From Candidatus Latescibacterota bacterium (lineage in GTDB: Bacteria; Latescibacterota; UBA2968): a DNA stretch of 64,000 nt. Shown in pieces: positions 1 through 61,172 of the stretch. Every line of letters starts with the position of its first letter. Position 1 is the first letter of the stretch. The notes under the pieces were generated by a model. The model worked only from the letters and a program-made list of their open reading frames with translations. It did no database searches and was not told where the DNA came from. Position numbers and translations under genes: made by a program. The stretch lies in assembly GCA_965208125.1 (NCBI GenBank), contig OZ242320.1:3008001-3072000 (forward strand), in the 5' to 3' direction.

Positions 1-27
1 TTCGCGTGTTGTTTCGGGGGTGCTCAT
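1..27 (-). CDS. Possible 5' end of a divergent gene (MSTPETTRE...), running off the window edge
   Basis: ATG at 27-25 on the - strand, open to position 1; only 9 codons are visible. Confidence 0.3.
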
Positions 28-174
28 AGTTTATAACCTGTGGAATCGTTTTTGAGGGACGGGGGTTGTTAGACAGAACAAATAATCTATAAAGGATAGA
101 GAAAATAAGCAACCAAATTTTCCTCCGCAGGCGGGCGTTTAAATTCATCCCGATCTTGTGCCTGCCAAAAAAAA

Positions 175-201
175 GTAACAGTTTGATCTGTGTGATGTGT
201 T
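175..201 (+). promoter_or_regulatory. Candidate ECF-type autoregulatory promoter (GTAAC-N17-GTGTT)
   Basis: AAC-containing -35 box preceded by an A-tract, just upstream of the ECF sigma gene; weak pattern match. Confidence 0.3.
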
Positions 202-225
202 AAAAAATAAAGCGATGGGTTGTTT

Positions 226-693
226 ATGAATGTCGAATTGTTATATCAAAAATACGGTCCTATGGTGTTGCGACGCTGTCGGCGATTGTTGCGTGATGAA
301 GATCGCGCCATGGATGCCATGCAAGATGTTTTTGTGCGGGTATTGCAACACCGGGATCGTCTGAAGGCGACCTATCCGTCGAGTTTGTTGTATCGCATTG
401 CGACCAATGTGTGTTTAAATCGCATTCGAGGTCAGCGGCTCGACCTGCCGGGCGATGAGGTGTTGATGCAGATTGCGGGGATGGAAGATCTGGAATCGCG
501 GTTGGATGCCCGGGCGATGCTGGACCGGCTTTTTGCCCGGCACAGAGATTCGACGCGAACAATTGCGGTTTTGCATTTTGTGGATGGTTTCACATTGGCG
601 GAAGTCGCTCAAGAGGTGGGGATGTCGGTTTCTGGGGTGCGAAAGCGGTTGCGGGGGTTGCGGGAATCGCTGAAGAATCTGGAGGAGCTATGA
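226..693 (+). CDS. ECF-family RNA polymerase sigma factor
   Basis: Region 2 (DAMQDVFVRVL...LLYRIATNVCLN) and region 4 HTH (GFTLAEVAQEVGMSVSGVRKRL); about 155 aa; ATG at 226 (ORF track starts at TTG 220). Confidence 0.93.
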   Translation: MNVELLYQKYGPMVLRRCRRLLRDEDRAMDAMQDVFVRVLQHRDRLKATYPSSLLYRIATNVCLNRIRGQRLDLPGDEVLMQIAGMEDLESRLDARAMLDRLFARHRDSTRTIAVLHFVDGFTLAEVAQEVGMSVSGVRKRLRGLRESLKNLEEL

Positions 694-1454
694 CTATGGA
701 ATGCGGTATTCCCGATTGGAAATTGGAGCGTTTTCGGCTGAATGAATTGCCGGAAGAAGGGATGAGAGCTATTCAAAGGGCGCTGGATGAGGACCCGAAT
801 TTGAGCGCACACTTGGAGGCACTGGAAGGGTCAGATCGAGAAATTTTCGAGTCCTATCCGACCGAGTGGGTGGCGCGGCAGGTTGCGCGTCGATCGGAGA
901 GGCGAGGGGTGCCGAGTATATCGCGGTTCGGTCCGCGTTTGGCATTGGCGGCCGTGATGGTGCTCGCCGTTGTTTTTGCAATCTATTTGCCGGGGCCTGA
1001 AGCGCCACCAACCTGGGATCGGAAAGGGATGGATGGCATTCGGTTAAAAGGCGTAAAGCCAGATTTGTTGCTGTACCGAAAAAGAGCGTCTGGGGTTGAA
1101 CAATTGGCGGATAGCAGTGTGGCTTATGCAGGCGATTTGATTCAGATTTTTTATCGCGCGGCAGGCAAACCTTTTGGGGTGGTTGTGTCTGTGGATGGGC
1201 GCGGTACTGTGACGCGGCATTTGCCCGCATCGGGAACAAGAGCCGTGCGCTTGATACAGGGCGATCCCGTGCCGCTGGATTATTCTTATGAATTGGATGA
1301 TGCCCCAAAGTGGGAGCGGTTTTATTTTTTAACAGCAGATACGTCTTTTGATGTGCGCGATGTGACACAAGCGGCGAAGGATGGTCCCGATTCATTGCGG
1401 GTGGGAAGAGAGTTTGAGCAGTTTGCCATTACGCTTTACAAGGGAGTCGAGTGA
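690..1454 (+). CDS. Single-pass membrane anti-sigma factor-like protein with a periplasmic DUF4384-like domain
   Basis: ATGA overlap with the sigma stop; N-terminal anti-sigma-like helices (IPDWKLERFRLNELP), one TM (LALAAVMVLAVVFAIYL), then RLKG...GDLIQIFY...VVVSVDGRGTVT...SYELDDAP..ERFY. Confidence 0.75.
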   Translation: MTMECGIPDWKLERFRLNELPEEGMRAIQRALDEDPNLSAHLEALEGSDREIFESYPTEWVARQVARRSERRGVPSISRFGPRLALAAVMVLAVVFAIYLPGPEAPPTWDRKGMDGIRLKGVKPDLLLYRKRASGVEQLADSSVAYAGDLIQIFYRAAGKPFGVVVSVDGRGTVTRHLPASGTRAVRLIQGDPVPLDYSYELDDAPKWERFYFLTADTSFDVRDVTQAAKDGPDSLRVGREFEQFAITLYKGVE

Positions 1455-3250
1455 TGTTGTGCCGATGGATAGTGCTGTTGGGAATCGGTTTGCTGTTATG
1501 TGCCCAGGGAATCGAGGCAACACAAGTTGTGCGGCGGTGGGTACTGGCAGTGGGTGCCAATGCTGGCGGTGCAAAGCGCGAGACTTTGCAATATGCTGTC
1601 TCTGATGCTCAAAATTTTGTGCAGGTTATGGAAACAATGGGCGGTGTTGATGCTGGTGTTTTGTTACCCGATCCGCGCATTGACGATCTTGAGGAAGCTT
1701 TGCACGCATTGCACAATCGGGTCGCATCTGCGGAAGCAGCGAGGAGAGAGGTGATTATCTATTATTCGGGACACGCCGATGAAAATGGCCTTCGGTTGGG
1801 GGAATCGCTTTTTTCTTACGCACGCCTTCGCAATGCGATGGATCGGATGGAAGCCGATGTGCAAATTGCTATTCTGGATGCCTGTGCTTCTGGTGCGATT
1901 ACGCGATTGAAGGGCGGGCGACGGCAAGAAGCGTTTATGGTGGATGCGTCATCGGATATGCGAGGATATGCGTTTTTGACGTCGAGTTCAGAAGATGAAG
2001 CGGCGCAGGAGTCGGATGCGATTGGGGCGTCATTTTTTTCGCATTATCTGGTGTCGGGATTGCGCGGCGCAGCTGATGTGACCGGGGATGGGCGAGTTAC
2101 GTTGAATGAGGCCTATCACTTCGCGTTTCAAAATACATTGGAGGGTACGGAACGCACACAAGGCGGGGCGCAGCATCCGGCTTATGATATCAAGATGACG
2201 GGTACGGGTGATGTGGTGATGACGGATGTGCGACAAACGTCGGCGGGACTGATTTTGGCGGAGGCACTTCAGGGACGATTTTTTATTCGAAATGCCAATC
2301 GACAGTTGATTGCAGAGTTGTTTAAGCCCGCTGGACGGCGCGTTGAGTTGGGGCTGGAACCCGGTACGTATCGCGTTCACATGGCCCGTGAGATCGAATC
2401 GGCTACAACTTCGGTCGAATTGGCGATGGGACAACGCGAGATACTCGACGAAGATCATTTTGAAATTATTGCGCGAGAACGCACCACAATTCGGGGTGGG
2501 ATTAAATATAGCGTAAAACGCTCTCGGGTCGAATTTCGCGGGGGATATTGGAATCCAATCGGAAGATCGACGACAAGTACAGATGGGTTGGCGCGGCAAA
2601 GTGTAGGGAGCGGATTGGTGCAGCAGAGTGCAGAGAATGTGATGGGGTCTGTCGCTTATACCTATCAGCTAAAAGAAAATCTGGCTTTGACGGTTCGATG
2701 GGCTGGGTTGATTGTAGAGGCGAAAAATAATGTGGGTATTCTGGGTATATCCCAGGACGCTGTTATTGTTATGCCTCTGCTTTTTGGTGTACGCTACTAC
2801 TGGCCTTTGGCACCGTCCCCTTTTCGGCCTTATGTTGTCGCAAGCGCGGGATCCTATTTTTTGTCAGATACCTATCAAAAAGTTGGTACAGGACAAAATG
2901 TGCCAAACGTCGATATTGAGGCGGAAGGTGTTAGCGTTAATGTGCAAGAGGACGATGAGGGGCGAACCGTCAACGTTCAGGCTGACCTTGAAAAGCTAAA
3001 TCTCGACTTGACCACATCGGGGATTGTTCAAGAAGCTCGTATTCAAGCCAGTTTGGGAGCTTATATCGGTGGCGGTGTTGATTTTGCCATCGGAAGGTAT
3101 TTGATGCTCGGCGCAAGCGCGGGCTATCATCTGATTGCAAATTTTGCAGAGCCAATAAGAGGTCGTAGAAATTTCAGTGGTCCGGAATTGAGCTTTAGTT
3201 TGAGTTTGTTGTGGGGGAAAGATGTGGGAGCGGTCAAGAGTATTCGCTGA
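1451..3250 (+). CDS. Exported caspase-family (C14/metacaspase-like) protease with a C-terminal outer-membrane beta-barrel-like domain
   Basis: Signal peptide; catalytic dyad motifs YYSGHA and ILDACASG; AQESDAIGASFFSHYLVSGLRGAADVTGDGRVTLNEAY; amphipathic strands (LLFGVRYY, FRPYVVASAG, YIGGGVDF, ELSFSLSLLW); GTGA overlap with the upstream gene. Confidence 0.88.
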   Translation: MMLCRWIVLLGIGLLLCAQGIEATQVVRRWVLAVGANAGGAKRETLQYAVSDAQNFVQVMETMGGVDAGVLLPDPRIDDLEEALHALHNRVASAEAARREVIIYYSGHADENGLRLGESLFSYARLRNAMDRMEADVQIAILDACASGAITRLKGGRRQEAFMVDASSDMRGYAFLTSSSEDEAAQESDAIGASFFSHYLVSGLRGAADVTGDGRVTLNEAYHFAFQNTLEGTERTQGGAQHPAYDIKMTGTGDVVMTDVRQTSAGLILAEALQGRFFIRNANRQLIAELFKPAGRRVELGLEPGTYRVHMAREIESATTSVELAMGQREILDEDHFEIIARERTTIRGGIKYSVKRSRVEFRGGYWNPIGRSTTSTDGLARQSVGSGLVQQSAENVMGSVAYTYQLKENLALTVRWAGLIVEAKNNVGILGISQDAVIVMPLLFGVRYYWPLAPSPFRPYVVASAGSYFLSDTYQKVGTGQNVPNVDIEAEGVSVNVQEDDEGRTVNVQADLEKLNLDLTTSGIVQEARIQASLGAYIGGGVDFAIGRYLMLGASAGYHLIANFAEPIRGRRNFSGPELSFSLSLLWGKDVGAVKSIR

Positions 3251-3362
3251 TGAAGGCGTTGGTCTTGCACCCGATGTTTGGGTTTCGACGCCGGACGCGC
3301 TTTTGGAAAGTGGAACGGATCGCATTTTTGAGACAGCAATTGAGATTCTGCGAGAGAAATGA
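3222..3362 (+). pseudogene. C-terminal remnant of an S41 (tail-specific) peptidase
   Basis: Frame 3252-3362 reads EGVGLAPDVWVSTPDALLESGTDRIFETAIEILREK*, which fits the S41 C-terminal pattern EGxGxxPDxxV...D...A...L. Confidence 0.6.
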
Positions 3363-3488
3363 GCGTATCTTTTCATCTGAAATTCTCCTTCATTCTCGTT
3401 GCATTCGCAGTTAAATGTTATTAAAATTTGTTGAATTTTCAGATCGTCAAAATATTTTACTGCACTGCGACAAGAGGGGAAGGAAAAC

Positions 3489-3908
3489 ATGGCACAAAAA
3501 AATTCTGCTATTGCACCAGAACTCGTCAACCAATTTGTCCAAGATGCCCACGGCGACTTCGACAGTGTAAAAAAGCTGCTTGAGAAAGAACCGGCACTCG
3601 TCAATTCTTCTTGGGATTGGGGAGGTGGCGACTGGGAAACGGGACTGGGCGCAGCAGCACACATGGGTCGCAAGGATATTGCCGAGTTTCTGCTGAACAA
3701 GGGCGCGCGCATCGATTTGTTTGCGGCGGCCATGCTGGGCAAGCTCGAAATCGTACAGGCGGTGGTGAACGACAATCCAGCGGTTGTAAATGAAAAGGGA
3801 CCACACGGGATTGCACTGATGACCCATGCCAAAAAGGGAGGCAAGGAGTCGGCAGAAGTGGTGAAATTTCTGCAGTCTGTTGGCAATTCGGTCAAGAAGA
3901 AGGCGTAA
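3489..3908 (+). CDS. Small ankyrin-repeat protein
   Basis: AHGDFDSVKKLLEKEPALVN, ETGLGAAAHMGRKDIAEFLLNKGA; RBS AAGGA. Confidence 0.88.
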   Translation: MAQKNSAIAPELVNQFVQDAHGDFDSVKKLLEKEPALVNSSWDWGGGDWETGLGAAAHMGRKDIAEFLLNKGARIDLFAAAMLGKLEIVQAVVNDNPAVVNEKGPHGIALMTHAKKGGKESAEVVKFLQSVGNSVKKKA

Positions 3909-3985
3909 CAGAGACGCGGGACCACACGGATGGATGTACATCTGTCTAAAGATGATGCTTTTCTTATTCGCCTATTCTTGTTGTG

Positions 3986-4175
3986 TTATTAGCGAATACC
4001 GGTATAAACGCTAATAAGCATTATTCTTCTTTTCGCATTTGAAAACAAGGAGGGGAGCGGGCCGAGGCGCAGAGATCACTCTACGGGTTTCCGGCACTCG
4101 TCTTTGCGTTTTTATATGGTCTAATTCAGATTTTATGCATAAGTCTTAATAAGTGTGCGGCTTATTAAGTTATGC
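3986..4175. repeat. AT-rich inverted-repeat cluster between convergent genes
   Basis: ttattagcg(3986-3994)/cgctaataa(4009-4017); gcataa..cttaataag(4137-4153)/cttattaagttatgc(4161-4175). Confidence 0.6.
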
Positions 4176-4240
4176 TTAACAAGGATGCTTCTCTATGAAA
4201 CGCGGCGAGACCGAACACGAAACAGGGATTACGGGGGATT

Positions 4241-5356
4241 TTAATGTGAGGAATCGTTAATCAGACGGCGAACGACTTCGGCGGGGTCTCCAGTTAGGGC
4301 GAGGAGGTCCATTTGTCGTTGTGCCCAGGTGGGTTGGTAAGCCATGTCGAGGACGTGTTTGAGATAGGGTACGCAATTGAGTTGTTCGGCCATGGGGAGC
4401 AGTTTTTCGACGAGTTCCTCGGTTATTTGGGGGACGGATTTGAGGTTGTGAGAAGTGGAATCGACCAGTTGTGCTTCGATGCCGTACCGCGAGGCGTGCC
4501 ATTTGTTTTGGCGGATGAGCATGGGGTGGCTGTCGTGTTGATAGATTCCCCGGTCGATTTCGTCGGACAGGTTGCAAATTAAACACTGAACGAGTGCGAC
4601 CAATCCCAATGTGTCTTCGAGAGTGCCGGGAATGTCGCAAATGCGGACTTCAACGGTGCCAAATGCGTGATGGGGACGCACGTCCCACCAGATTTCGCGG
4701 ATGGATTCGATATAGCCGGTGTCGATGAGGTGGTTGATTAGCCAGACGTATTCGCTCCAGTTGCGCATTAAGGGGGGCAGCCCAGCGGTGGGGAGGCCCT
4801 CCATTACTTTTGATCTCCAGGAGTGTAAGCCCGTGACTCGACCCTCCCAGAATGGGCTGTTGCAAGAAAGCGCCAGCAAGACGGGCAAATAGCGCAGTAT
4901 TCGGTCGCAGATCATTATGGCTTTGTCGCCGCTGTTGACGCCTACGTGTACGTGGAGGCCAAATGTGACCAGTTGCCGGGCGGTGTCCTGGAGGAGGTTG
5001 ACGAGGCCCATGTATCGGTCATTGGGTGTGATTTTTTGTTCGCGCCAGGTGGAAAATGGGTGTGTGCCCGACCAGTAGAGCTGGACATTCTCGGCGGCTG
5101 CTACGCTGGATAGTGTATGGAGTTTGGGCTTGAGGTCGGCTTCTACATGGCTGACACTTTCACATATATCGGTGTTGATTTCAACATAACACTGCATCAA
5201 TTCGGGCTTGATTTTGTCGGCATATTCGCCGGGAATGCGGTTGAGTATCGCGGCATTTTTGCTGCACAAAGCCATGGTGTCGGCATCGACCAGAGCCAGT
5301 TCTATTTCCACGCCGAGGGTGGGTTTTTTGCTGGGATTAAATTCAAGTCGGGTCAT
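4241..5356 (-). CDS. YbdK-family carboxylate-amine (glutamate--cysteine) ligase
   Basis: TLGVEIEL, SGTHPF, FGLHVHVG, IWWDVRP, GTVEVRICD motifs; likely start MTRLEF at 5356 with a GGAG RBS. Confidence 0.9.
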   Translation of the reverse strand: MTRLEFNPSKKPTLGVEIELALVDADTMALCSKNAAILNRIPGEYADKIKPELMQCYVEINTDICESVSHVEADLKPKLHTLSSVAAAENVQLYWSGTHPFSTWREQKITPNDRYMGLVNLLQDTARQLVTFGLHVHVGVNSGDKAIMICDRILRYLPVLLALSCNSPFWEGRVTGLHSWRSKVMEGLPTAGLPPLMRNWSEYVWLINHLIDTGYIESIREIWWDVRPHHAFGTVEVRICDIPGTLEDTLGLVALVQCLICNLSDEIDRGIYQHDSHPMLIRQNKWHASRYGIEAQLVDSTSHNLKSVPQITEELVEKLLPMAEQLNCVPYLKHVLDMAYQPTWAQRQMDLLALTGDPAEVVRRLINDSSH

Positions 5357-6563
5357 GGCAATCTCCATTCTTTTTTCGCGATGGATCAAAATAGTTGACG
5401 ACGCTGCGCGCGAGTATTTTGGCACCTATGATCAGGGCGCGTTCATCAATGTCGAAGTCGGGTGCATGCAAAGGCGGGGCACTTCCGCGGGCGGGCATGC
5501 ATCCCAGGCGAAACAAGCTGCCGGGCACATGGTCGAGATAATTGGCAAAGTCTTCGCCCCCCATGCTCGGTCTGGCGATGGTTTGAACGTGTGTTTGGCC
5601 CAATAGATCGATGGCATTTTGGCGGATCAGTTCGGTGAGTGCGGGGTCGTTATTGACCGATGAGGGGCCGGTGAGAAAGCGAACATCGATTTCCGTGTCG
5701 GTGAGATTGGCTATGCCATTGGCTATCTTGAGGATGTGATCCATGGCATGGGCTTGAGAACTGCCACTGAGGGTGCGAAGGGTGCCTTGAAGCAGAGCCT
5801 GGCCGGGTATGACGTTGGGATTTTCGCCCGCAGAGATATGCCCAATTGATATGACAATCGGGTCGTAGGTATCTACATTGCGAGGCAATGATTGATAAAG
5901 CGCAGTGATGACCTGTGCGGCAGCGACGATGGGGTCTCGCGTTTCCCGGGGGCGCGCGGCATGTCCGCCCCGGCCCTGGATGCAAATTTCTATTTCCGCG
6001 CAATTGGCTGTGAGCACGCCTTTGCGTGTGCCCACAGTGCCTGCTGGACGCGAGGGATCGAGATGAAGACTGAGCAGGCCACAGACGTTTTTGAGGGCGC
6101 CAAAGGCGATCATGTCTTTGGCGCCGCGATTGGTTTCTTCAGCAGGTTGAAAGATGGCGCGCCAGTGTACAGGCCACGGCAATACCTGGTCGCATTCCAG
6201 AAGACCCAAAATAGCACCGAGCACTGTGGCTGTATGACCATCGTGTCCGCAGGCATGCATCACACCTGGTACGCGACTGCGATAGGGCACATTTTTGTCA
6301 TCTTGTATGCGAAGTGCATCGATATCGGCTCGCAGGCCTATACGCGTGTTTTCCAATGTATTGTCGGCTATAACGCCACAACTTCTGGGACCTATCTGTA
6401 CATGGCATCTGGTCTGTTGTAACAATTTGACGAGATAGCGCGTGGTTTCCACTTCGCGACCGCTGGGTTCGGGATACATGTGCAGATCGCGGCGGACGCG
6501 TATAATTTTTTTGCGTTGTGCGTCAATGGCACGGTCGAGTTTTTGTGTCCAGGTATTGGGCAT
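5343..6563 (-). CDS. M20D-family amidohydrolase
   Basis: RRDLHMYPE, LRADIDAL, MHACGHDGH, FQPAEE, GGHAA, MGGEDF. Confidence 0.93.
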   Translation of the reverse strand: MPNTWTQKLDRAIDAQRKKIIRVRRDLHMYPEPSGREVETTRYLVKLLQQTRCHVQIGPRSCGVIADNTLENTRIGLRADIDALRIQDDKNVPYRSRVPGVMHACGHDGHTATVLGAILGLLECDQVLPWPVHWRAIFQPAEETNRGAKDMIAFGALKNVCGLLSLHLDPSRPAGTVGTRKGVLTANCAEIEICIQGRGGHAARPRETRDPIVAAAQVITALYQSLPRNVDTYDPIVISIGHISAGENPNVIPGQALLQGTLRTLSGSSQAHAMDHILKIANGIANLTDTEIDVRFLTGPSSVNNDPALTELIRQNAIDLLGQTHVQTIARPSMGGEDFANYLDHVPGSLFRLGCMPARGSAPPLHAPDFDIDERALIIGAKILARSVVNYFDPSRKKNGDCHDPT

Positions 6564-6730
6564 GCTTCTAAAAATACTGATAATTTTTTTTTTGCGCTAT
6601 AATATTGTTTTAAGTGGTTCGCAGGCTCCTGCAATACCTGTTTTCTCTTGACTTCCTGTCGTGTATGGTTGAAATTAGGTCGTCATTTTGTAGCAATAGA
6701 TAACCGAAGATTATTTCTAAGGAGCGTGTT

Positions 6731-6964
6731 ATGTGGCGACGACAAGAAGCAAATCGCGATTTTTTTTGGATTGGAGTCGTAGTTGGCCTTGCTGCCGTTA
6801 GCCTCGCCGTTGTGGGATTTTTGTTGGGAACGGAAATGGGGCGAAATACGCGCACGAGATTGGGACAGACCGTTCAACGCGTGCGTAGCCGCATTGATGG
6901 TTCGGCGGAATCCAATGGTTCAACAGAATCCAAGGAGTCACCCGCTGAAGAATATATAGATTAA
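6731..6964 (+). CDS. Small membrane-anchored YtxH-like protein
   Basis: GGAG RBS; N-terminal TM followed by GRNTRTRL; strong terminator downstream. Confidence 0.65.
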   Translation: MWRRQEANRDFFWIGVVVGLAAVSLAVVGFLLGTEMGRNTRTRLGQTVQRVRSRIDGSAESNGSTESKESPAEEYID

Positions 6965-7025
6965 AAAGAGCCCCGGGTGTGTTTCTGGATTGAACTACCC
7001 GAGTGGTTAACCGATAAGAGGTGAG

Positions 7026-7069
7026 ACGCAAGAAGTAAAACGCGAGGGCGTTTTATTTCTTGCGTTTTT
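7026..7069 (+). terminator. Intrinsic terminator
   Basis: 18-bp stem acgcaagaagtaaaacgc/gcgttttatttcttgcgt, 4-nt loop, T-run. Confidence 0.75.
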
Positions 7070-7073
7070 ATAT

Positions 7074-7577
7074 GTGATGAATTTGCTTTATAAACCCGAT
7101 GGATATCCCATTTATGCCGTTGTGGAAAATGTTCGTTCACTGTTTAATGTGGGCGCGATTTTTCGCTCGGCAGATGGGATCAACGCATCGGGGGTTTATT
7201 TAACGGGATTTACGGGATGTCCCCCGCGCAAGGAGATCAGTCGCGTGGCGTTGGGCGCAGAAGAGACCGTGCCCTGGTATTATGAACGGGATACGGCAAA
7301 GTTGATCGGCGATTTGCGCTCGCAAGGTGTACAGGTGGTTGCGTTAGAGCAAACACCAGATAGTGTCGATTTCCGAACTTTTTACTATCGCTGGCCGGTG
7401 GCTGTGATTTTGGGCCATGAAGTGACGGGTGTGCGTCCTGAGACCCTGTGTTTGTGCGATAGCGTTGTTCACATTCCGATGTTGGGAACAAAAGTGTCTC
7501 TAAATGTGTCTGTAGCTGCAGGGGTTATGCTTTATGAATTGTTGTCCGTTTTTGAGAGACAACGAGATAGGTTGTGA
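7074..7577 (+). CDS. SpoU/TrmH-family RNA methyltransferase
   Basis: NVRSLFNVGAIFRSAD, ILGHEVTGV, IPMLGTKVSLNVSVAAG. Confidence 0.93.
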   Translation: MMNLLYKPDGYPIYAVVENVRSLFNVGAIFRSADGINASGVYLTGFTGCPPRKEISRVALGAEETVPWYYERDTAKLIGDLRSQGVQVVALEQTPDSVDFRTFYYRWPVAVILGHEVTGVRPETLCLCDSVVHIPMLGTKVSLNVSVAAGVMLYELLSVFERQRDRL

Positions 7578-7660
7578 TATACCTGGTTTGAAATCCGGGG
7601 CTGGGCGGGCTGACAATGTGGTATAACTGGCTGCTGACTACTGAGAAAGGACGTATCCCA

Positions 7661-8863
7661 ATGAGTTTACGCTTTTGCGCTGTGCTGTGTATGCTTATGG
7701 CCCTGAACGGGGAGGAACTGCGGGCTGAAACGAGCGTGTTTTGGGTGGCTAATGGTCCGATGGCATCGGATTTTGATGGCGATGGCGAGGTGACGTTTTC
7801 CGATTTTTTGCACTTTATCAATAATTTTAATGTGGATTCAGAAGATGAGAGCTATGATCCTCGCACGGATTTGAATGAGGACGGGGTCACGAATTTTAAC
7901 GATTTTTTGGCATTTAGTTCTTCTTATGGTCAAACAAAGACCTCTGATGAACCGAGCGGAGATCGATATATTATTTATGTCGCGGATTCGGATGATAGTT
8001 CGATTATGGCACTGGATTTTGATTCACACTTGCTGCTTGATTATATACCCTATCGGGGTACGGGTGGCGTGATGGTGTCTGCGGATCAGCAGTCGATTTA
8101 CGTGACGGATATATTTGGGTTTTACAAGATGAACACGCGCCATGAGGTGCAGTTTAGCGTGCCTGTTGAATCGCGGGGCAAAGCGGTGTTGAGTCTGGAT
8201 CAGACGCGGGCTTATGTGGCTGATCAGGTACAGGATCTGGTTCGGGTGGTGGATGTGGTGAATGGCGTTACCACAGATTCTATCCTGGTGGGCAATCGAC
8301 CGTTTGATGTCGCGCTCTCTCCCGATGGCACAAAGTTGTATGTGGCAAATTTTACCGATCAAAATGTGGCGGTCGTCGATTTGGAAACGATGACGGTTAC
8401 GGCGAGGATAATTATCGGTGATATTCCGGGGGAGATATCAGTTACGCAGGATGGGACGCAGGCTTATGTGACAAATTTGAGGCGCGGTGTGATTTCTGTT
8501 TTGGATCTCAATACCAATCAGGTGGTGGGCGCGCTTCAGATTGATCAAGAGGCTTCGTTTGGCGCAGAGTTTTCGCCCGATAGAAAGTTATTGTACGTGA
8601 GCGCAGAGGGCGTGTTGTTGGAAATTGATGTAGAGCGCAATTTGATTGTTCGCACATTGCGGTTGGGAGATGATTCGACGGTGCTCGGGGTTTCACCCGA
8701 TGGCTCTCGGGCTTATGTTACAACGCTTTTGAGGCAGACCAGCGGGCCGGGACTTACGGTGGTGGATTTGAATGAGTGGAAGATTCTCGGGCGATTACGG
8801 GGGTTCATTTTTCCGAGGGAGATCGCGTTTCTGGCTGTGCCGAGGAGCACGGGGTCTCAGTGA
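7661..8863 (+). CDS. Exported protein with an N-terminal paired EF-hand/dockerin-like domain and a YVTN/YncE beta-propeller
   Basis: Signal peptide; DFDGDGEVTFSDFLHF...DLNEDGVTNFNDFLAF; repeats SPDGTKLYVAN, QDGTQAYVTN, SPDGSRAYVT. Confidence 0.85.
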   Translation: MSLRFCAVLCMLMALNGEELRAETSVFWVANGPMASDFDGDGEVTFSDFLHFINNFNVDSEDESYDPRTDLNEDGVTNFNDFLAFSSSYGQTKTSDEPSGDRYIIYVADSDDSSIMALDFDSHLLLDYIPYRGTGGVMVSADQQSIYVTDIFGFYKMNTRHEVQFSVPVESRGKAVLSLDQTRAYVADQVQDLVRVVDVVNGVTTDSILVGNRPFDVALSPDGTKLYVANFTDQNVAVVDLETMTVTARIIIGDIPGEISVTQDGTQAYVTNLRRGVISVLDLNTNQVVGALQIDQEASFGAEFSPDRKLLYVSAEGVLLEIDVERNLIVRTLRLGDDSTVLGVSPDGSRAYVTTLLRQTSGPGLTVVDLNEWKILGRLRGFIFPREIAFLAVPRSTGSQ

Positions 8864-11286: not shown

Positions 11287-12945
11287 TTATGCGTTGTGCC
11301 ATGCGTCTTCCCAGGGCGTGCCTTCGAGCGATTCTGCGGCGATATCCTGAGGGCTGCGTTTGAGCACTTGTTCTTTATATTTTTTGATGCTCAATTTGTC
11401 GGGTGATAAGGAGGTTTCTTTGCTGATGGCGCGGGTAAAGGCTTCGGCAAAGGTTTCGATGCTGTCTTTTTCATCTTCGGGCAAGCGTTTGGGCCAGGGG
11501 CCGTCGTTGAGGTTGACCGTGCGGCATTCTTCTTCTGTGGGAATGCGGACCGGGCCGGGATATGAGCGTAGTCTATCGCCGTCAAGCGAATCACTCAGGC
11601 CGTGCTGTAGTTCCCAGGCGATGATTTGATCGCGAAATTTTGCCGCCAGTGCGGGGTGTTCGGCGATGAGGTTGTGCTGTTCGTGTGGATCATTTTCAAG
11701 GTCGTAGAGTTCTTCGATTCCGCCGTGGGCAAAGAAGGCGTATTTGTGTTTCTGGTTGCGTGCTGAAATCCAGCGTCCTTTGCCCTTGCCGTAGTCTATA
11801 ATCGCGGCTTCTCGAGGCTGGGATAGACCTCCACCTGTTGCGCCCAGGAGGTTTGACCCTGACAATGGGCCGTGTTTTTCCGGGTACTGAAGGTCGAGTT
11901 CTTCTATGAGGGTGGGAAAGAAGTCGAGCAGGCTGACGAGGGCATCACATTGTTGCCCCGCCTGTGTTTTGCCGGGCCAGCGGAGGAGATATGGAATGCG
12001 CACGGAGGATTCATAAGGGCAGTTTTTTTGCGAAAGGCCGTGTTCGCCCATCATTTCACCGTGGTCTGAGACAAAGAGGACAACAGTGTTATCGGATAGG
12101 CCGAGGGTTTCGAGTTCATTCAAAATGCGACCGATGCCGTCGTCAACATGAGAGATGAGGCCATAGTAAAGGGCACGCAGGCGGCGCAGGCGGTCGGGAT
12201 CGCGATGGGCACCATCCAGACGTCCGCGGCTGCCGTAAAAATTGGGTGGCAGGGTTTCGATAGGGCGGTCGGCAAAGGGCGGAAGTTCCATGTCGGCGGG
12301 GTCGTACATGTCGTCGTACGGTTCACAGGGCGCAAAGGGCGGGTGCGGCGATATCCAGGAACTCCATAAAAAAAAGGGTTGATTGGTGCGGTAGCGCATA
12401 TGTTCTCGGAGAAAGTCAATGGACCGGTCGGCGACCCAGGTATTTTTGTGGTGTTCAACAGATATGCCACAGGTTTGGGGCTGGAAGAAGAGCAGATCGC
12501 GGATGCCTTTGGGAAAACGGGTGCGAACGCCGTTTTCTCGCAGATAGCGGAGGTAGTCGTCATTGACCCGGTGATCGATACATTCTTCCATGGTGAGGAG
12601 GTTTCGGAAGCCGTAGTGCCGACCGTGAAAGTGCATTTTTCCAATGCCCTGCGTCCAGTACCTGGCGCGCAAAAGAAGCGTCATGATGGTGGGAAGTTCG
12701 GGTAAGGGACCAGGTAGCGCACTGTTGTCTGTCCAGTGGTGTCGGGACATTCTGTGTCCCGTGATGAAACTCATGCGCGCGGCAACGCAGACGGGGGTGG
12801 GCGTGACGGCCTGTGTAAAGCGTACACCGGAATTGGCGAGCGCGTCGAGGTTGGGCGTGCGGATCGTTGTATTTCCAGCGCAGCCCAGGGCATCTGCGCG
12901 CTGCTGGTCGGTCATAAGGACGAGAATATTGGGGCGATCAGACAT
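11287..12945 (-). CDS. Sulfatase (Cys-type, no signal peptide)
   Basis: Starts [16 protein letters not shown]; CVAAR, GKMH, SDHGEM. Confidence 0.92.
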
Positions 12946-12956
12946 GGTGTTTGATA

Positions 12957-14453
<1,497 letters not shown>

Positions 14454-16491: not shown

Positions 16492-17112
16492 ATGGTTGAT
16501 CTTTTTATTAAAGGCGGAAACTTTATGTATCCGTTGCTGGTGATGTTGTTCTTTGGTGTTGTGGTGATGATTGAGCGCTTTTACACGCTTTTTAAGGCAC
16601 ATATCAATGCCAAAGAGTTTATGGTAGAGCTTCAGGATGCCCTCAAGCAAAATGGGCCAGAAGGTGCTGCCGAGTTGTGTTCCAATACGCGCGGCCCAGT
16701 CGCCACGGTGCTGCATGCAGGGCTGTTGCGTTTAGACCGCGGTATTGAGCATGTGGAGAAATCGATTGAGGAATCCGGTGCTATCGAAATGGCTTTTCTC
16801 GAGCGTGGTCTCGTGTGGCTTTCCACTGTTGCAAACCTGGCACCTCTTGTCGGTTTCCTGGGCACTGTGTCGGGTATGATCCGAGCTTTTAACGATATTG
16901 CCGCTGCTGGCGATGTTGATCCCAGTGTTGTGGCTGGCGGTATTTCTGAAGCTTTGATTACAACGGCTTCGGGCCTGGTGGTTGCTATTCCAGTGCAGGC
17001 TGCATACAATTTCTTCCTGTCAAAAATTGACAAGATCATCATCGATCTTCAGGAAAGTTCCAATCAATTTGTCGATGACCTGATTCAATTGGGCTACGGC
17101 AAGGAGGAATAA
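16492..17112 (+). CDS. exbB: MotA/TolQ/ExbB proton channel
   Basis: APLVGFLGTVSGMIRAF, GISEALITTASGLVVAIP. Confidence 0.93.
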   Translation: MVDLFIKGGNFMYPLLVMLFFGVVVMIERFYTLFKAHINAKEFMVELQDALKQNGPEGAAELCSNTRGPVATVLHAGLLRLDRGIEHVEKSIEESGAIEMAFLERGLVWLSTVANLAPLVGFLGTVSGMIRAFNDIAAAGDVDPSVVAGGISEALITTASGLVVAIPVQAAYNFFLSKIDKIIIDLQESSNQFVDDLIQLGYGKEE

Positions 17113-17115
17113 AAC

Positions 17116-17520
17116 ATGGCCCTTCAGCGACGCGAAAAATCTTCACCTGAAATCCCCACCGGATCTATGGCAGATATCGTGTTTTTGTTGCTGGTGTTTT
17201 TCCTCGTGACAACCACGATGAACCAGGATAAGGGTATTGGTATGCACTTACCGCCGGCAGGCGAGTCCAAGAAAATCCAGAAGAAAAATATTTGCAACGT
17301 CTGGGTCAATGTCAATGGGGATATTCTCATCAATTTGGAACAAAGTGTACCGTTGAATATGCTTCGAGCAGATATTGAGCAGCGATTGGCGCAAAATGAG
17401 AAGCTGATCGTTTCATTAAAGGCCGACGAAGAAACGCCCTATGAGAAATTTATCGATGTGCTCGACGAGATTAAATTATCAGGGGCAGACAAAATTTCGC
17501 TCGCCTCGCCCAGTGAGTGA
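17116..17520 (+). CDS. exbD: ExbD/TolR protein
   Basis: SMADIVFLLLVFFLVTT, LKADEETPY. Confidence 0.92.
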   Translation: MALQRREKSSPEIPTGSMADIVFLLLVFFLVTTTMNQDKGIGMHLPPAGESKKIQKKNICNVWVNVNGDILINLEQSVPLNMLRADIEQRLAQNEKLIVSLKADEETPYEKFIDVLDEIKLSGADKISLASPSE

Positions 17521-17535
17521 GTTGAGGAGGTTTTC

Positions 17536-17943
17536 ATGAATTTTAAGAAAAAAGGTGGTGTCTCACACAGCATCCCAACCGGGTCTATGGCCGACATTAC
17601 TTTTTTGCTGCTCATTTTCTTTATGGTCTCTACGGTTTTTGTGCGCTACCGCGTGACGGGTATTATTATGCCCAAAGCCGAAAAAATTGAAGAGCTCAAG
17701 AAACGTCGTCACATCAACTATTTATGGGTTTCTGCTGATCGCAAGATATATATTGACGACAAGTTGGCGAATCTCGACCAGGTAGCCGGGATTTTTTATG
17801 ATCGCCGCGTCAAAGATCCCCGTATGGTTGTGTCACTCAAATGTGACTATCGCGCGCCTTATGGGTTGATCAGCAGAGTGATGGAAGAATTGCGCGAGGC
17901 CGATGCGTTGCGCATCAACTTTGCGACTAACCGAGAGGGGTAA
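17536..17943 (+). CDS. exbD: ExbD/TolR protein (second copy)
   Basis: SMADITFLLLIFFMVST, LKCDYRAPYG. Confidence 0.92.
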   Translation: MNFKKKGGVSHSIPTGSMADITFLLLIFFMVSTVFVRYRVTGIIMPKAEKIEELKKRRHINYLWVSADRKIYIDDKLANLDQVAGIFYDRRVKDPRMVVSLKCDYRAPYGLISRVMEELREADALRINFATNREG

Positions 17944-17946
17944 GCT

Positions 17947-18594
17947 ATGGCAATGATTCGGGGAAAAGCACCAGAAGCCGATTTGCGACGCACGTATAAT
18001 AAGGTCTTTGGATATTGTACGTTGATCACGTTTGTCCTGCATACCGCCGTGGCCGTGATTTTTCCAACTTTTGAAGCCTCTGCGAGTGATCGCAAGAAGA
18101 AACAGATCATTATTGAAAATGTAGATATTCCAGAAACCCAACAGATCAAGCGTCCGCCACCGCCGCCTCGACCGGCTGTGCCAATTGAGACAGAGAGCGA
18201 CGATGTGCCCGACGATGTGACTATTGAGAGTACAGATCTCGATTTTGACGATGCAATGGTCGATATGCCGCCGCCACCGCCGCCGGGTTCACAAGAGGAA
18301 GAAGAAGAGATCTTCGAGTTTTTCATGGTTGAACAAAAACCAAAAGTTATAAAGCAGGTAAATCCTAAATATCCGGAAATCGCCCGCAAAGCCGGGTTGA
18401 CTGGCAAAGTGTTTTTGAAGTTTTTGGTTGATAAGAGTGGTCGGGTAAGCAATGTGACCGTTCTCAGAGGTCAAGAAATTTTCCGGCAAGCAGCAATTGA
18501 TGCCGTTTTGCAATTCAGGTTTGAACCAGCCCAACAAAATGACAAGCCGGTTTCTGTTTGGATGACACAGCCGATGTCTTTCCGTCTGAATTGA
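17947..18594 (+). CDS. tonB: Energy transducer TonB
   Basis: TM with His, Pro-rich linker, YPEIARKAGLTGKV...FEPAQQNDKPV. Confidence 0.93.
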   Translation: MAMIRGKAPEADLRRTYNKVFGYCTLITFVLHTAVAVIFPTFEASASDRKKKQIIIENVDIPETQQIKRPPPPPRPAVPIETESDDVPDDVTIESTDLDFDDAMVDMPPPPPPGSQEEEEEIFEFFMVEQKPKVIKQVNPKYPEIARKAGLTGKVFLKFLVDKSGRVSNVTVLRGQEIFRQAAIDAVLQFRFEPAQQNDKPVSVWMTQPMSFRLN

Positions 18595-23032: not shown

Positions 23033-24277
23033 ATGGCTTCTGATAAACCAAATATTATTCTGATTCTGTCCGATGATTTGGGATATGAATGCCTGGGGTG
23101 TTATGGGGGTGAATCGTATCAAACGCCCGTGCTGGATGGTTTGAGTAAAGAGGGAATGCGTTTTGACCATGCGTATGTTCTGCCGTTGTGTACGCCTACG
23201 CGGTTACAGTTGATGACTGGTAAATACAATTTTCGCAACTGGCGAGCTTTTGGGGTGATGGATCCCCAGGAGCGCACCTTTGGGCATTTGATGAAAGCGG
23301 CTGGGTACAAAACGTGTATTTCGGGGAAATGGCAAATGTATAGCTATAATCCGCCGGATTTTGAACCCGAGTGGCGCGGTAAGGGGCAATTGGCGGAAGA
23401 TTCGGGTTTTGACGAGTATTGTTTGTGGCATACGGAACATACCGAGGATAAGGGGTCGCGGTATGCCGATCCGGTGATTCAACAAAATGGGGAGTATTTG
23501 GAGGAGACAGAGGGCAAGTACGGTCCAGATATTTATACGGCTTATATTTGCGATTATATCGAGCGGCACAGGGATGAGCCGTTTTTTGTTTATTATCCAA
23601 TGGCACTGACACACGGTCCGTTTGAACCCACGCCCCATAGTGAAATATGGTCTGAAAACCGACACGATAGCGGTGTGGAATATTTTAAAGATATGGTTGA
23701 GTATATGGATGTGGTGATTGGACGGATTGTAGATAAATTGGATGAACTCGATCTGAGAGAGAATACTTTGCTTTTGTTTATTGGCGATAATGGGTCGCCT
23801 CGTCAGGTGACTTCTATTATCAATGGTCGCGAGTTTCAGGGTGGAAAGGGCCTTTCGACTGATGCGGGTACGCGGGTGCCATTTGTTGCGAGTTGGCCGG
23901 GTACGATTCCCCCCGGGTCTGTGTGTGATGATTTGATCGATTGTAGCGATTTTGTACCGTTGATGATGGATATGGCTGGGGCTTCCTTGCCCGAGGACGA
24001 TGTGTTTGATGGGGTGTCATTTTTGCCGCAGTTAAAGGGCGAGGCGGGAACGCCACGCGAGTGGATTTTTGCCCATCACGATCCCCTGCCCGGATGGGGT
24101 AAGGAGGGTTATTACTTAAAGCGATGGGCACAGGATAAACGCTGGAAGCTCTACGATACGGGCGATTTGTACGATGTTGTAGCAGATGAGTTGGAAGAGC
24201 ATCCCATCGTCGATGGAGGTGCAGAAGCAGAGGCAGCGCGACAAAAATTACAGCCCGTGCTGGATCGGATGAAGTAG
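23033..24277 (+). CDS. Sulfatase (Cys-type, no signal peptide)
   Basis: KPNIILILSDDLG, CTPTR, GKW, GDNG. Confidence 0.92.
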   Translation: MASDKPNIILILSDDLGYECLGCYGGESYQTPVLDGLSKEGMRFDHAYVLPLCTPTRLQLMTGKYNFRNWRAFGVMDPQERTFGHLMKAAGYKTCISGKWQMYSYNPPDFEPEWRGKGQLAEDSGFDEYCLWHTEHTEDKGSRYADPVIQQNGEYLEETEGKYGPDIYTAYICDYIERHRDEPFFVYYPMALTHGPFEPTPHSEIWSENRHDSGVEYFKDMVEYMDVVIGRIVDKLDELDLRENTLLLFIGDNGSPRQVTSIINGREFQGGKGLSTDAGTRVPFVASWPGTIPPGSVCDDLIDCSDFVPLMMDMAGASLPEDDVFDGVSFLPQLKGEAGTPREWIFAHHDPLPGWGKEGYYLKRWAQDKRWKLYDTGDLYDVVADELEEHPIVDGGAEAEAARQKLQPVLDRMK

Positions 24278-28674: not shown

Positions 28675-30048
28675 CTAACGGGTTGCTCTGTTAATGCCTT
28701 TGATTTTTTGATTTGCTTTGGCGCGCTGGTCGATTTCTTCGGGTGTGACGATGTTGTGGAGGTCGGCGCGGAGGTCGGAGAGGATGTCGGCACAGGTGGG
28801 GTCGTCGGCGCGATTCTCGGTTTCGTCGGGGTCGTTGGCGATGTTGAATAACTGGTCTGGCAGGCCGACGTAGTGGATGTATTTCCAGTCGCCTTTTTTG
28901 ATCATGAAGCCGCCGTTTAGAGCGCCCTGGGCGTGATATTCGCTGAAGATGGGGCGGTCGGAAAAGGCGTGACCGTGGATGGCGGGGAGGAGGCTGCTGC
29001 CGGGTAAAGGCGCGGGATCCTGTTCGGCGAGGTCGAGAAGGGTGGGGAGGATGTCGATGAGGTTGGCTCCTGCGGCGATGCGCTGGTTGCCCTCGGCGTT
29101 TGGATGGCGAATGATCATGGGGACGCGTACGGCGTGTTCGTAAAAGCATTGTTTTTGCCATATACCGTGATGTCCACCCATTTCGCCGTGGTCGCTGACG
29201 TAGATGACGACGGTGTTGTCGCGCAGGGATGAGTTATCGACAATGTGGAGCAAGCGACCGACGAGGTCGTCGGTGAAAGAGATGAGGCCGTAGTAAGCAG
29301 CGGTTGCGGTGGTGGAGATGGCGTCGGGCAAGGGTTCTTCGTTGCGTAGCCAGTGGCGGAGTTGCTGGATGGAAGGGTGCTGGGTATCGCAGGGTTCGGT
29401 TCTCGTGTGTGGCAAGATGACGCGGTCGGGATAGTAGCGGTCGAAGTATTCTTGCGGGCACAGGAGGGGGAAGTGGGGGTTCATGAAGCCGGTGTAGAGG
29501 AAGAAGGGACGGTCGGCGTATTGTGCGCGGGATTTGAGGAAGCGTTCGGAGAGGTCAGTAGCTGTGCTGTCGTAGTCGTTTTGCCAGTTTTCCCCGGGAC
29601 CGCATTCGGTGACGTGGCTGTTGCTGCCGCGCCGGTTGTCGGGTGTGCGCGAGGGAGCACCCATATTCCAGTGTTTCCATTTTTCTGCGTCGTCCATGAG
29701 CCGTTTGCCAAAGCCGTGCAGGCGTTCGGGACCTATGAAGTGGGTGCGGCCACAGACTGCGGTTTCGTAGCCCGCGGCTTCGAGGTAGCTGCCCATTGTG
29801 GGGATTGTTCCCGCGAGGGGCGAGCCGTTGTCCCAGGTGCCGATCTGGTGGACGTATTGTCCGGTCATAAAGGACATGCGTGCCGGTACGCATATCGGGC
29901 AGGCGGTATAGGCATTGTCAAAGGTGGTGCCTTCGGATGCGAGGCGGTCCATGTGTGGCGTTTCGATATGGGGGTGGCCGTAACAACCGGTGACTGAGGG
30001 GTCGTGTTCGTCGCTCATGATGAGCAAGATGTTGGGACGCTGGTTCAT
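28675..30048 (-). CDS. Sulfatase (choline-sulfatase-like)
   Basis: RPNILLIMSDEH, CVPAR, SDHGEM. Confidence 0.92.
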   Translation of the reverse strand: MNQRPNILLIMSDEHDPSVTGCYGHPHIETPHMDRLASEGTTFDNAYTACPICVPARMSFMTGQYVHQIGTWDNGSPLAGTIPTMGSYLEAAGYETAVCGRTHFIGPERLHGFGKRLMDDAEKWKHWNMGAPSRTPDNRRGSNSHVTECGPGENWQNDYDSTATDLSERFLKSRAQYADRPFFLYTGFMNPHFPLLCPQEYFDRYYPDRVILPHTRTEPCDTQHPSIQQLRHWLRNEEPLPDAISTTATAAYYGLISFTDDLVGRLLHIVDNSSLRDNTVVIYVSDHGEMGGHHGIWQKQCFYEHAVRVPMIIRHPNAEGNQRIAAGANLIDILPTLLDLAEQDPAPLPGSSLLPAIHGHAFSDRPIFSEYHAQGALNGGFMIKKGDWKYIHYVGLPDQLFNIANDPDETENRADDPTCADILSDLRADLHNIVTPEEIDQRAKANQKIKGINRATR

Positions 30049-30049
30049 G

Positions 30050-61095: not shown

Positions 61096-61172
61096 TGGTG
61101 GGCGATACTGGATTCGAACCAGTGACCTCCTGCTTGTAAGGCAGGCGCTCTAACCAGCTGAGCTAACCGCCC
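61096..61172 (-). tRNA. trnV: tRNA-Val(TAC)
   Basis: GGGCGGTTAGCTCAGCTGG...CCTTACAAG...GGTTCGAATCC...CGCCCACCA; 77 nt with encoded CCA. Confidence 0.97.

Follow-up and report, generated by a model that had tools for sequence, protein, structure and literature searches.

A three-gene operon and its products

We analyzed a stretch of 64,000 nucleotides (hereafter the window, C1:3008001-3072000) from the single-contig genome of 5.75 Mb of a Candidatus Latescibacterota bacterium. Close to its start lie three forward-strand open reading frames (ORFs) at 220..693, 690..1454, and 1451..3250, which encode, in this order, a sigma factor of the extracytoplasmic function (ECF) type, a single-pass anti-sigma factor, and an exported protein that joins a Peptidase_C14 domain to a beta-barrel. 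The operon spans 226-3250 (+). Because tblastn matches begin at residue 3, the sigma factor most likely starts at ATG 226, the ORF being open from TTG 220. The sigma stop and the anti-sigma start overlap as ATGA at 690-693, and the anti-sigma stop and the start of gene 3 as GTGA at 1451-1454. Shine-Dalgarno-like runs, GGAGG and AGGGAG, were found closely 5' of the two overlaps. Gene 3 was taken to start at GTG 1451; an alternative ATG is present at 1454 and may be used instead. The features of the operon are as follows.

175..202, forward strand: predicted ECF-type promoter with -35 element GTAACA (175-180), 16-nucleotide spacer, and -10 element GTGTTA (197-202), from motif conservation
226..693, forward strand: ECF (group 4) sigma factor, 155 residues from ATG 226, from Sigma70_r2, Sigma70_r4_2, and TIGR02937 matches
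690..1454, forward strand: single-pass anti-sigma factor, 254 residues, from an AlphaFold2 (AF2) model with a mean predicted local distance difference test score (pLDDT) of 87.3 and a match to NF010501 (6e-4)
1041..1052, forward strand: R118-L-K120-G121 at the linker/domain junction of the anti-sigma factor, candidate site-1 cleavage or docking motif, from conservation
1451..3250, forward strand: exported caspase-barrel protein, 599 residues, from Pfam, AF2, and Foldseek
1529..2236, forward strand: Peptidase_C14 domain, residues 27-262, with H108 at 1772-1774 and C145 at 1883-1885, from PF00656 (4.1e-9)
1901..1918, forward strand: protease loop T151-R-L-K-G-G156, candidate autoprocessing site, invariant in 40/40 homologues
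2237..2500, forward strand: middle immunoglobulin (Ig)-like beta domain, residues 263-350, from AF2 strands at 265-340 and Foldseek
2513..3220, forward strand: 8-stranded outer-membrane beta-barrel, residues 355-590, from AF2 and Foldseek

The original prediction, made from the DNA letters, had proposed an operon of three translationally coupled genes at 220..3362. The coupling was borne out by the ATGA and GTGA overlaps and by the conserved gene order described below, and the triplet is confirmed as real. The proposed end was too far downstream: gene 3 stops at 3250, and no feature was detected in 3251-3362, which belongs to an intergenic stretch reaching to 3488. A scan for terminator-like sites between 3250 and 4083 listed none. 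Contigs of an RNA library from a relative that is ~92-95% identical (X1) covered 102-644, 762-1536, and 1529-2489, leaving 2521-3240 uncovered, and X2 touched 3250-3372 only; with DNA carry-over possible, these traces prove neither transcription nor start sites nor a single transcript.

The first gene product matched Sigma70_r2 (E 1.7e-15), Sigma70_r4_2 (5e-6), and the ECF family TIGR02937 (8e-19). In line with ECF group 4, whose members have ~150-200 residues, it has only the sigma-2 and sigma-4 regions, a length of 155-157 residues, and an overlapping anti-sigma gene. Sigma identity across phyla was 54-72%.

In the AF2 model of the anti-sigma factor, calculated with 47 orthologues, residues 9-71 are helical and 82-99 form a transmembrane helix; residues 103-119 make up a disordered linker, which leads into a beta-sandwich at 125-251. 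The N-terminal helices and the transmembrane helix, modeled with high pLDDT, may correspond to the domain layout of class I anti-sigma factors. Matches to anti-sigma families were weak (NF010501 6e-4, NF052375 0.055), and a FecR-type Pfam match was not obtained. ZAS-type anti-sigma factors carry the zinc motif H-x3-C-x2-C. The motif is not present in the N-terminal 80 residues of the window's protein, which contain a single cysteine (C5).

The beta-sandwich gave a match in part of the family: PF14326 (DUF4384) was detected in 12 of the 47 orthologues at E<=0.05, with a best value of 1.7e-4. The original prediction had called for a search for DUF4384. The caspase proteins gave no PF14326 match, and the DUF4384-like domain was located instead in the periplasmic part of the anti-sigma factor. 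An Atlas search returned unnamed clusters, one of which, with PF14326 in 10% of its members, scored 0.80 and provided a weak further lead to DUF4384. By structure, the sandwich is generic: Foldseek retrieved only common beta-sandwiches (PEBP/CEN at 6e-4, RhoGDI, and carbohydrate-binding modules), and in a wide VIA-align comparison an Ig-like AGS-C domain scored Z 9.5 and macroglobulin MG domains Z ~9, barely above the usual background of 7-8. The anti-sigma alignment yielded nothing meaningful against PDB sequences. Searches with region 118-254 and with an alignment detected no fused proteins of greater length that contain the periplasmic domain, which is weak evidence.

The third protein begins with the leader MMLCRWIVLLGIGLLLCAQG followed by IE, which was recognized as a signal peptide by eye, no predictor having been run. 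The Peptidase_C14 match (PF00656, E 4.1e-9) covers residues 28-247 and reached 36.9 bits against a gathering cut-off of 21.4. An intact His/Cys caspase dyad, as originally predicted, was found in SGH (H108) and DAC (C145), and it is invariant in all 40 aligned homologues. D52, S106, and D143 (S-G-H, D-x-C, and the Asp in L-x-Y-A-x-S-D-A) mirror what we take to be the acidic S1 pocket of Arg/Lys-specific metacaspases. The anticipated small beta-rich middle domain was recovered as well: AF2 placed a beta domain at 265-340, and Foldseek with the two N-terminal domains retrieved caspases and the caspase-Ig3 unit of MALT1 (E ~3e-5 to 1e-4), the MALT1 alignments running over 465-488 columns; the domain looks like the Ig3 domain behind the caspase domain of MALT1. 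Pfam gave no match for it.

The amphipathic strands noted earlier at the C-terminus do form a barrel in the model. AF2 predicted eight long strands at 358-588, and Foldseek matched them to the OmpA transmembrane domain, OmpX, OmpW, Ail, and NspA (E 1e-8 to 1e-5). PF13505 (OMP_b-brl) was detected in 14 of 40 homologues and not in the window's own copy, and the family profile matched OmpW in the PDB at E 1.6e-3. Outer-membrane barrels carry a C-terminal aromatic residue as beta-signal. The protein ends in ...LLWGKDVGAVKSIR, with a Trp 11 residues from the end, and the paralogue type described below ends in ...LLLF. A type Va autotransporter, which has a 12-stranded barrel and secretes an N-terminal passenger, was rejected on the count of eight strands; PF03797 was matched by 1 of 40 homologues (3.3e-4). 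Given an 8-stranded barrel of the usual topology, the N-terminal caspase would be located in the periplasm. Two barrel loops, both expected to face outward in that topology, behave differently: an insert at residues 481-522 (nucleotides 2891-3016) is disordered and carries indels even among relatives more than 80% identical, and F-x-E-P-x3-R-x-N-[YF]-S-G at residues 563-576 is kept across phyla.

In the close relatives L003, L004, L006, L008, and L016, the sigma and anti-sigma genes are followed by a caspase-barrel paralogue of ~525 residues ending in LLLF, an Omp85-family gene (PF01103 8e-11, plus DUF4252), and the orthologue of the window gene (1693-3270, 3271-4959, and 4989-6809 in L003). 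The 5' part of the window gene (1451-1540) encodes a leader of the paralogue type (…LLGIGLLLCAQGIEATQVVRR) joined to a body of the orthologue type. This hybrid looks like the product of a deletion by recombination between tandem paralogues, in which the Omp85-like gene was lost.

Conservation of the module, its predicted promoter, and the R-x-K-G motif

A pattern scan over one genome per species returned 275 encoding stretches, from which we retained 76 loci. The three genes stood on one strand in the order sigma, anti-sigma, caspase in 72 of these 76 loci, as expected from the original prediction of a jointly conserved triplet. Among the exceptions, no sigma gene was found in L023, which is cut by the contig end, or in L037, and the caspase gene preceded the sigma gene on the short contigs L030 and L038. 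With our choice of start codons, 53 loci showed a 4-nucleotide overlap between the sigma and anti-sigma genes, and 41 showed one between the anti-sigma and caspase genes. The submitters' labels comprised at least nine phyla-level names (Latescibacterota, Acidobacteriota, Gemmatimonadota, Fibrobacterota, Eisenbacteria, Myxococcales, Planctomycetota, Spirochaetota, and Fermentibacteria), a few odd ones probably being binning errors. Among representative proteins, the anti-sigma profile matched 7680 at E<=1e-3, 4538 at E<=1e-10, and 2265 at E<=1e-30; of 8000 candidates scored against the caspase-barrel protein, more than 3145 were relatives at E<=1e-3.

A maximum-likelihood tree of 52 caspase plus middle-domain sequences, from which 11 near-identical or two-caspase relatives and loci lacking three complete genes were omitted, separated an Acidobacteriota-rich half from a mixed half with support of 99/99. 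The module is single-copy and, in this tree, largely clade-consistent. Within the window's phylum, the anti-sigma family occurred in 69 of 168 genomes, nearly always as a single copy; it clustered in two families (21/30 and 47/76) and was absent from the others. Gene content downstream of the caspase gene was not conserved across phyla. Truncated regulatory pairs were seen beside a retained caspase-barrel gene in some genomes of the same genus: in L010 (4328-5004) the sigma and anti-sigma factors are shortened to 92 and 129 residues, and G087 and G089 match only positions 128-268 or 145-268 of the anti-sigma profile. These cases may represent decay of the regulatory pair.

The C-terminal part of the third protein was less constant. 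Among 80 caspase ORFs from the 76 loci, 51 were of the barrel type, 14 had a tail of the form ...WPG..G.R, 10 could not be classified by patterns, and 5 were fragments. Long forms of ~680-850 residues had no Pfam match beyond C14 and carried LA_2272-type surface repeats (NF047436, ~1e-6); their C-termini matched nothing in the PDB. As the C-terminal module is swapped and the rest kept, the conserved core consists of the sigma factor, the anti-sigma factor, the caspase, and the Ig-like domain, and anchoring seems a likelier task of the C-terminal module than sensing. The idea that the barrel senses an outside ligand thus lost its support: the C-terminus is replaced by LA_2272-type repeats in 14 of the 80 ORFs with sigma, anti-sigma, and caspase retained, and an 8-stranded barrel has no channel.

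The predicted promoter is situated 24 nucleotides 5' of ATG 226. Of 73 loci, 56 had the strict motif GTRACA-N16-GTGTT within 200 nucleotides 5' of the sigma start and 60 had a relaxed form; mononucleotide shuffles gave a mean of 0.005 loci. This conservation points to a promoter under autoregulation. In the window's own genome, the strict motif occurred 8 times, where ~5 would be expected by chance according to our own arithmetic. A promoter weight matrix built from 46 non-redundant sites ranked the operon's own promoter first (26.6 bits). The second-ranking site (C1:4175288, 21.5 bits) lies inside an opposite-strand ORF and was rejected. The third (minus strand, 20.4 bits) is intergenic, 182 nucleotides 5' of a gene for a SusC/RagA-like TonB-dependent receptor (L079, C1:5515698-5518129, outside the window), which matched CarbopepD_reg_2 (1.3e-14) and Plug (1.4e-10), did not match STN, and is followed by a lipoprotein gene.

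The strict motif, with varying spacer, was found 5' of the orthologous receptor in 11 of 16 loci from the same genus and the relaxed form in 2 more, counts in which independence is overstated as the genomes are kin. It was seen in none of 4 loci from a family without the triad and was also missing in one same-genus genome that lacks the anti-sigma factor. The receptor operon is thus probably a second target of the sigma factor in this genus. Of three other genomes, one (G169) had the motif only at the operon's own promoter, another (G168) there and once inside an ORF, and the third there and at several positions 5' of genes for exported proteins or lipoproteins. From the motif and matrix surveys we deduced that the only universal target is the operon itself, accompanied by lineage-specific envelope genes. 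The regulon looks small.

The linker of the anti-sigma factor ends in R-[ILV]-K-G, with the Arg present in 46 of 47 orthologues and the Lys and Gly in all 47. In a second alignment, of the window sequence with 149 library representatives, K120 was invariant, and R118, G121, and R130 were conserved in at least 90%. The motif closes the low-confidence linker (pLDDT<50, 103-119) directly before the sandwich. When the anti-sigma sequence was shuffled, R.KG appeared anywhere in 4.4% of trials. From its conservation and position, R118-x-K120-G121 is a candidate cleavage site.

A closely similar motif occurs in the protease. T-R-[LIM]-K-G-G, 6-11 residues after the catalytic Cys, was invariant in 40/40 caspase homologues; over 52 triads, the loop read R-x-K-G-G in 49 and R-x-K-S-G in 3. 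The surrounding segment 146-183 has an AF2 pLDDT <50, and the T151-G156 loop lies about where, we presume, caspases cut their own intersubunit linker. The occurrence of R-x-K-G-G in the protease loop together with R-x-K-G in the anti-sigma factor suggests that the protease processes itself at the same kind of site.

Moreover, the two proteins co-varied. In a mirror-tree comparison of the 52 triads, the distances of the anti-sigma periplasmic domain and of the caspase domain correlated with r 0.671, and with 0.482 when the sigma factor was partialled out as the ancestry control. The caspase and its own middle domain (0.392) and the two halves of the anti-sigma factor (0.227) both stayed below 0.482.

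Proposed mechanism and alternatives

Synteny and coupling of the genes, the exposed motif shared by both proteins, their co-variation, and published links of DUF4384 and of DdvA (see below) argue for a direct action of the caspase on the anti-sigma factor. In our tentative proposal, to which we assign a probability of about 0.42, an outer-membrane-anchored periplasmic caspase is the site-1 protease that cuts the anti-sigma factor at R-x-K-G, and an RseP-type protease completes the process. At rest, the anti-sigma factor would retain the sigma factor at the inner membrane through its helical cytoplasmic domain and, in the periplasm, would present a disordered linker of ~20 residues ending in R-x-K-G and then the DUF4384-like beta-sandwich. 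The barrel would be inserted in the outer membrane; from it, the Ig-like and caspase (C14) domains would extend into the periplasm, the caspase being a latent Arg/Lys-directed protease. Once activated, the caspase would dock on the DUF4384-like domain and cut the anti-sigma factor at the R-x-K-G junction (site 1). An RseP-type site-2 protease would then remove the anti-sigma stub; an RseP-like Peptidase_M50 is encoded in the same genome (E 1.1e-66). The freed sigma factor would transcribe from GTRACA-N16-GTGTT its own operon and, in this genus, probably the TonB-dependent receptor operon.

Several points weigh against this proposal. Cleavage of the anti-sigma factor is so far predicted from sequence and models. 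The window's own anti-sigma factor had no Pfam DUF4384 match at E<=0.1, and a P1 preference of the protease for Arg or Lys is a suggestion from the residues of a putative S1 pocket. R-x-K-G could be structural, as the start of the first strand, or it could be a binding motif or the site of another protease. In the mirror-tree analysis, ancestry was corrected for by the sigma control only, and the distances of the N-terminal anti-sigma region were saturated (mean 1.5). An enzyme anchored in the outer membrane must reach an inner-membrane partner of ~150 residues through periplasm and peptidoglycan, which is borderline by a rough estimate. Finally, the sigma factor drives the very operon that contains the protease gene, so that the protease would create positive feedback if it were an activator; this arrangement fits a role as output equally well.

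Such an output role is rather unlikely in our estimate, and it deserves consideration. The caspase-barrel protein would then be an effector under sigma/anti-sigma control, an outer-membrane-tethered periplasmic protease for envelope proteins or imported proteins and peptides; the DUF4384-like domain would sense another periplasmic cue, and generic proteases together with RseP would degrade the anti-sigma factor. The sole universal target of the promoter motif is indeed the operon itself, many ECF operons carry an output gene downstream, and the TonB-dependent receptor operon as second likely target fits uptake followed by periplasmic processing. What such a role leaves unexplained is the presence of R-x-K-G in both the anti-sigma linker and the protease loop, the link between DUF4384 and proteases, and the finding that the caspase co-varies more strongly with the periplasmic domain of the anti-sigma factor than with the domain next to it in its own chain. 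It also gives no account of why one protease family is tied to one anti-sigma family across phyla despite swaps of the C-terminus.

Somewhat less probable still is that the caspase is a protective partner or pseudo-substrate, which shields the anti-sigma factor by binding its R-x-K-G and DUF4384 region and does not cut it productively. Titration of the protease by real substrates, or its loss from the envelope, would expose the anti-sigma factor to other proteases, and the released sigma factor would restore the caspase in a homeostatic negative feedback. The shared motif, synteny, and co-variation speak for this as they do for cleavage, and runaway positive feedback in an autoregulated operon would be avoided. 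A precedent is found in TonB-dependent transducers, which reportedly bind the anti-sigma factor in the absence of signal and protect it from proteolysis (PMC11637429). In the triad, binding is a proposal from sequence, and the invariant intact dyad and the identical motif in the enzyme's own loop are more simply accommodated by true cleavage.

We consider it highly improbable that the caspase is a defense or programmed-death effector armed by the sigma pair, as in NTPase- or CRISPR-linked systems: sigma factors and proteases of the C14 and CHAT types do work together in type III CRISPR systems, and the best NCBIfam match is caspase_w_EACC1 (1.3e-15), but at 57.5 bits this match is far under the family cut-off of 140, the protein is an exported one with a membrane anchor, Pfam identified no cas, NTPase, or other defense families among 40 window ORFs, and the operon is single-copy and largely clade-consistent.

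The module is a real, widespread, and uncharacterized variant of regulated-proteolysis ECF signaling, and the core idea of the original prediction, protease-driven trans-envelope signaling, is plausible. Regulated proteolysis of ECF sigma inhibitors is central to envelope signaling, and most ECF groups lack a known site-1 protease. In the triad, the obvious candidate is the dedicated enzyme of the caspase family, and the predicted cut site, R-x-K-G, is specific. If the proposed cleavage is true, a physiological substrate and a role would be at hand for the exported caspase homologues of bacteria, about whose functions little is known; it would also provide a function for DUF4384 and link envelope signaling to the craspase sigma switch. 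The compact, conserved, and apparently orthogonal set of sigma factor, anti-sigma factor, protease, and promoter would then perhaps be useful as a synthetic switch.

The surroundings of the operon in the window were also surveyed. After a gap of 238 nucleotides follows a gene for an ankyrin-repeat protein of 139 residues (3489-3908 (+), Ank_2 4.4e-8); L009 likewise has a homologue behind its caspase gene, and other phyla showed no link to the triad. Five sulfatase genes with PF00884, together with a sulfotransferase gene and a heparinase II/III-like gene, are located at 11290-13098, 23033-24274, 28678-32913, 45228-45947, and 52585-54594. This sulfatase-rich neighborhood looks like one for the degradation of sulfated polysaccharides. 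Two paralogous large proteins with DUF6785 and DUF6784 (E 2e-94 and 2e-85) are encoded at 42254-44245 (+) and 50472-52490 (-), flanking an enzyme cluster, and the window further contains ExbB and TonB genes (16492-18591) and a TonB-dependent receptor gene (57776-60736). The sole Rfam match in the window was a tRNA gene at 61099-61172 (-), with 75.2 bits. GC skew was positive in every 500-nucleotide bin of positions 1-8000 (0.07 to 0.31), irrespective of gene strand, which suggests a strong replication-strand bias in this genome.

Comparison with known systems

Like FecI/FecR/FecA, the triad combines an ECF sigma factor, a single-pass anti-sigma factor with a periplasmic domain, and an outer-membrane barrel protein with a putatively periplasmic N-terminal part; the sigma factor is predicted to drive the gene of the outer-membrane protein, and removal of the anti-sigma factor by regulated proteolysis would end with RseP. 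Unlike in FecIRA, the triad's barrel is 8-stranded without a channel, and its periplasmic domain is itself a protease. In FecIRA-type cell-surface signaling, site-1 cleavage is ascribed to Prc-type proteases, as far as the available text goes. Genes 2 and 3 gave no matches to Plug, TonB_dep_Rec, STN, or FecR. Because the operon encodes no transducer with a signaling domain and no FecR domain, the triad was not assigned to the FecIRA type. The RseA/DegS/RseP pathway is similar in that a membrane anti-sigma factor is cut in its periplasmic part and then within the membrane, and an RseP homologue is present. The proposed site-1 enzyme differs in being an outer-membrane-tethered Cys protease of the caspase fold instead of an inner-membrane PDZ serine protease, and the regulon looks small.

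A periplasmic caspase fold has a precedent in DdvS/DdvA of Myxococcus xanthus. DdvA is described as a transmembrane anti-sigma factor with a periplasmic caspase-fold (TPR-CHAT) module, and a caspase-like cut in the periplasm ahead of that by RseP has been proposed for it; protease fold and anti-sigma factor are fused in one chain, and autoproteolysis would occur in trans within a dimer (PMC11506125). As the protease of the triad is not fused to the anti-sigma factor, the triad is not DdvA-like; it has a separate C14 protein anchored in the outer membrane and an anti-sigma factor with a small beta-sandwich.

The original prediction had stated that no mechanistic description of such triplets was known. 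Our literature searches on sigma/anti-sigma/caspase-type operons likewise found no mechanism, but the operon type itself had been noted in 2012: operons of metacaspases and sigma-70 factors were reported from Myxococcus, Anaeromyxobacter, Haliangium, Sorangium, Ralstonia, and Fibrobacter (Asplund-Samuelsson et al., PMC3501461). The available part of that account is descriptive and names no anti-sigma factor, barrel, motif, promoter, or mechanism; its operons may be of the same family as the triad, whose loci likewise include Myxococcales and Fibrobacterota members. The main text of the ECF reclassification paper makes no mention of caspases, and CHAT domains occur near ECF54, a group without anti-sigma factor (PMC8999054). 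The PCaspase of the type III-B system of Haliangium ochraceum, a Peptidase_C14 that cleaves a putative sigma factor among other proteins (bioRxiv 10.1101/2023.06.23.546230), acts in a cytoplasmic defense cascade activated by SAVED-CHAT, with no membrane anti-sigma factor and no export in the portion of the preprint available.

A comparison was originally drawn with type III-E craspase, in which the caspase-fold protease Csx29 (TPR-CHAT), encoded with Cas7-11 and a CRISPR array, cuts a flexible linker in the sigma-holding Csx30. Craspase is cytoplasmic, RNA-guided, and of the CHAT type, whereas the protease of the triad is an exported C14 enzyme and the event would be periplasmic. Membership was rejected, there being no TPR/CHAT match and no cas families among the 40 window ORFs, in a survey of the window that did not extend to CRISPR repeats. 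The analogy is nevertheless closer than first stated: according to the available text of a preprint, DUF4384 is often fused to protease domains, and one group of C-terminal domains of Csx30, the sigma-holding substrate of Csx29, is DUF4384 (bioRxiv 10.1101/2022.08.17.504292).

These parallels invoke a broader and rather doubtful idea. DUF4384 might serve generally as a docking module by which a neighboring flexible linker is presented to proteases of the caspase fold, and the outer-membrane-tethered C14 zymogen might be the first known periplasmic caspase-type site-1 protease, cutting itself and the anti-sigma factor at R-x-K-G. Its activity may report the insertion of its own barrel, with the Omp85-family gene standing between two caspase-barrel paralogues in relatives. 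The envelope triad and the craspase Csx29-Csx30-sigma switch would then be two versions of one ancient device in which a caspase releases an ECF sigma factor.

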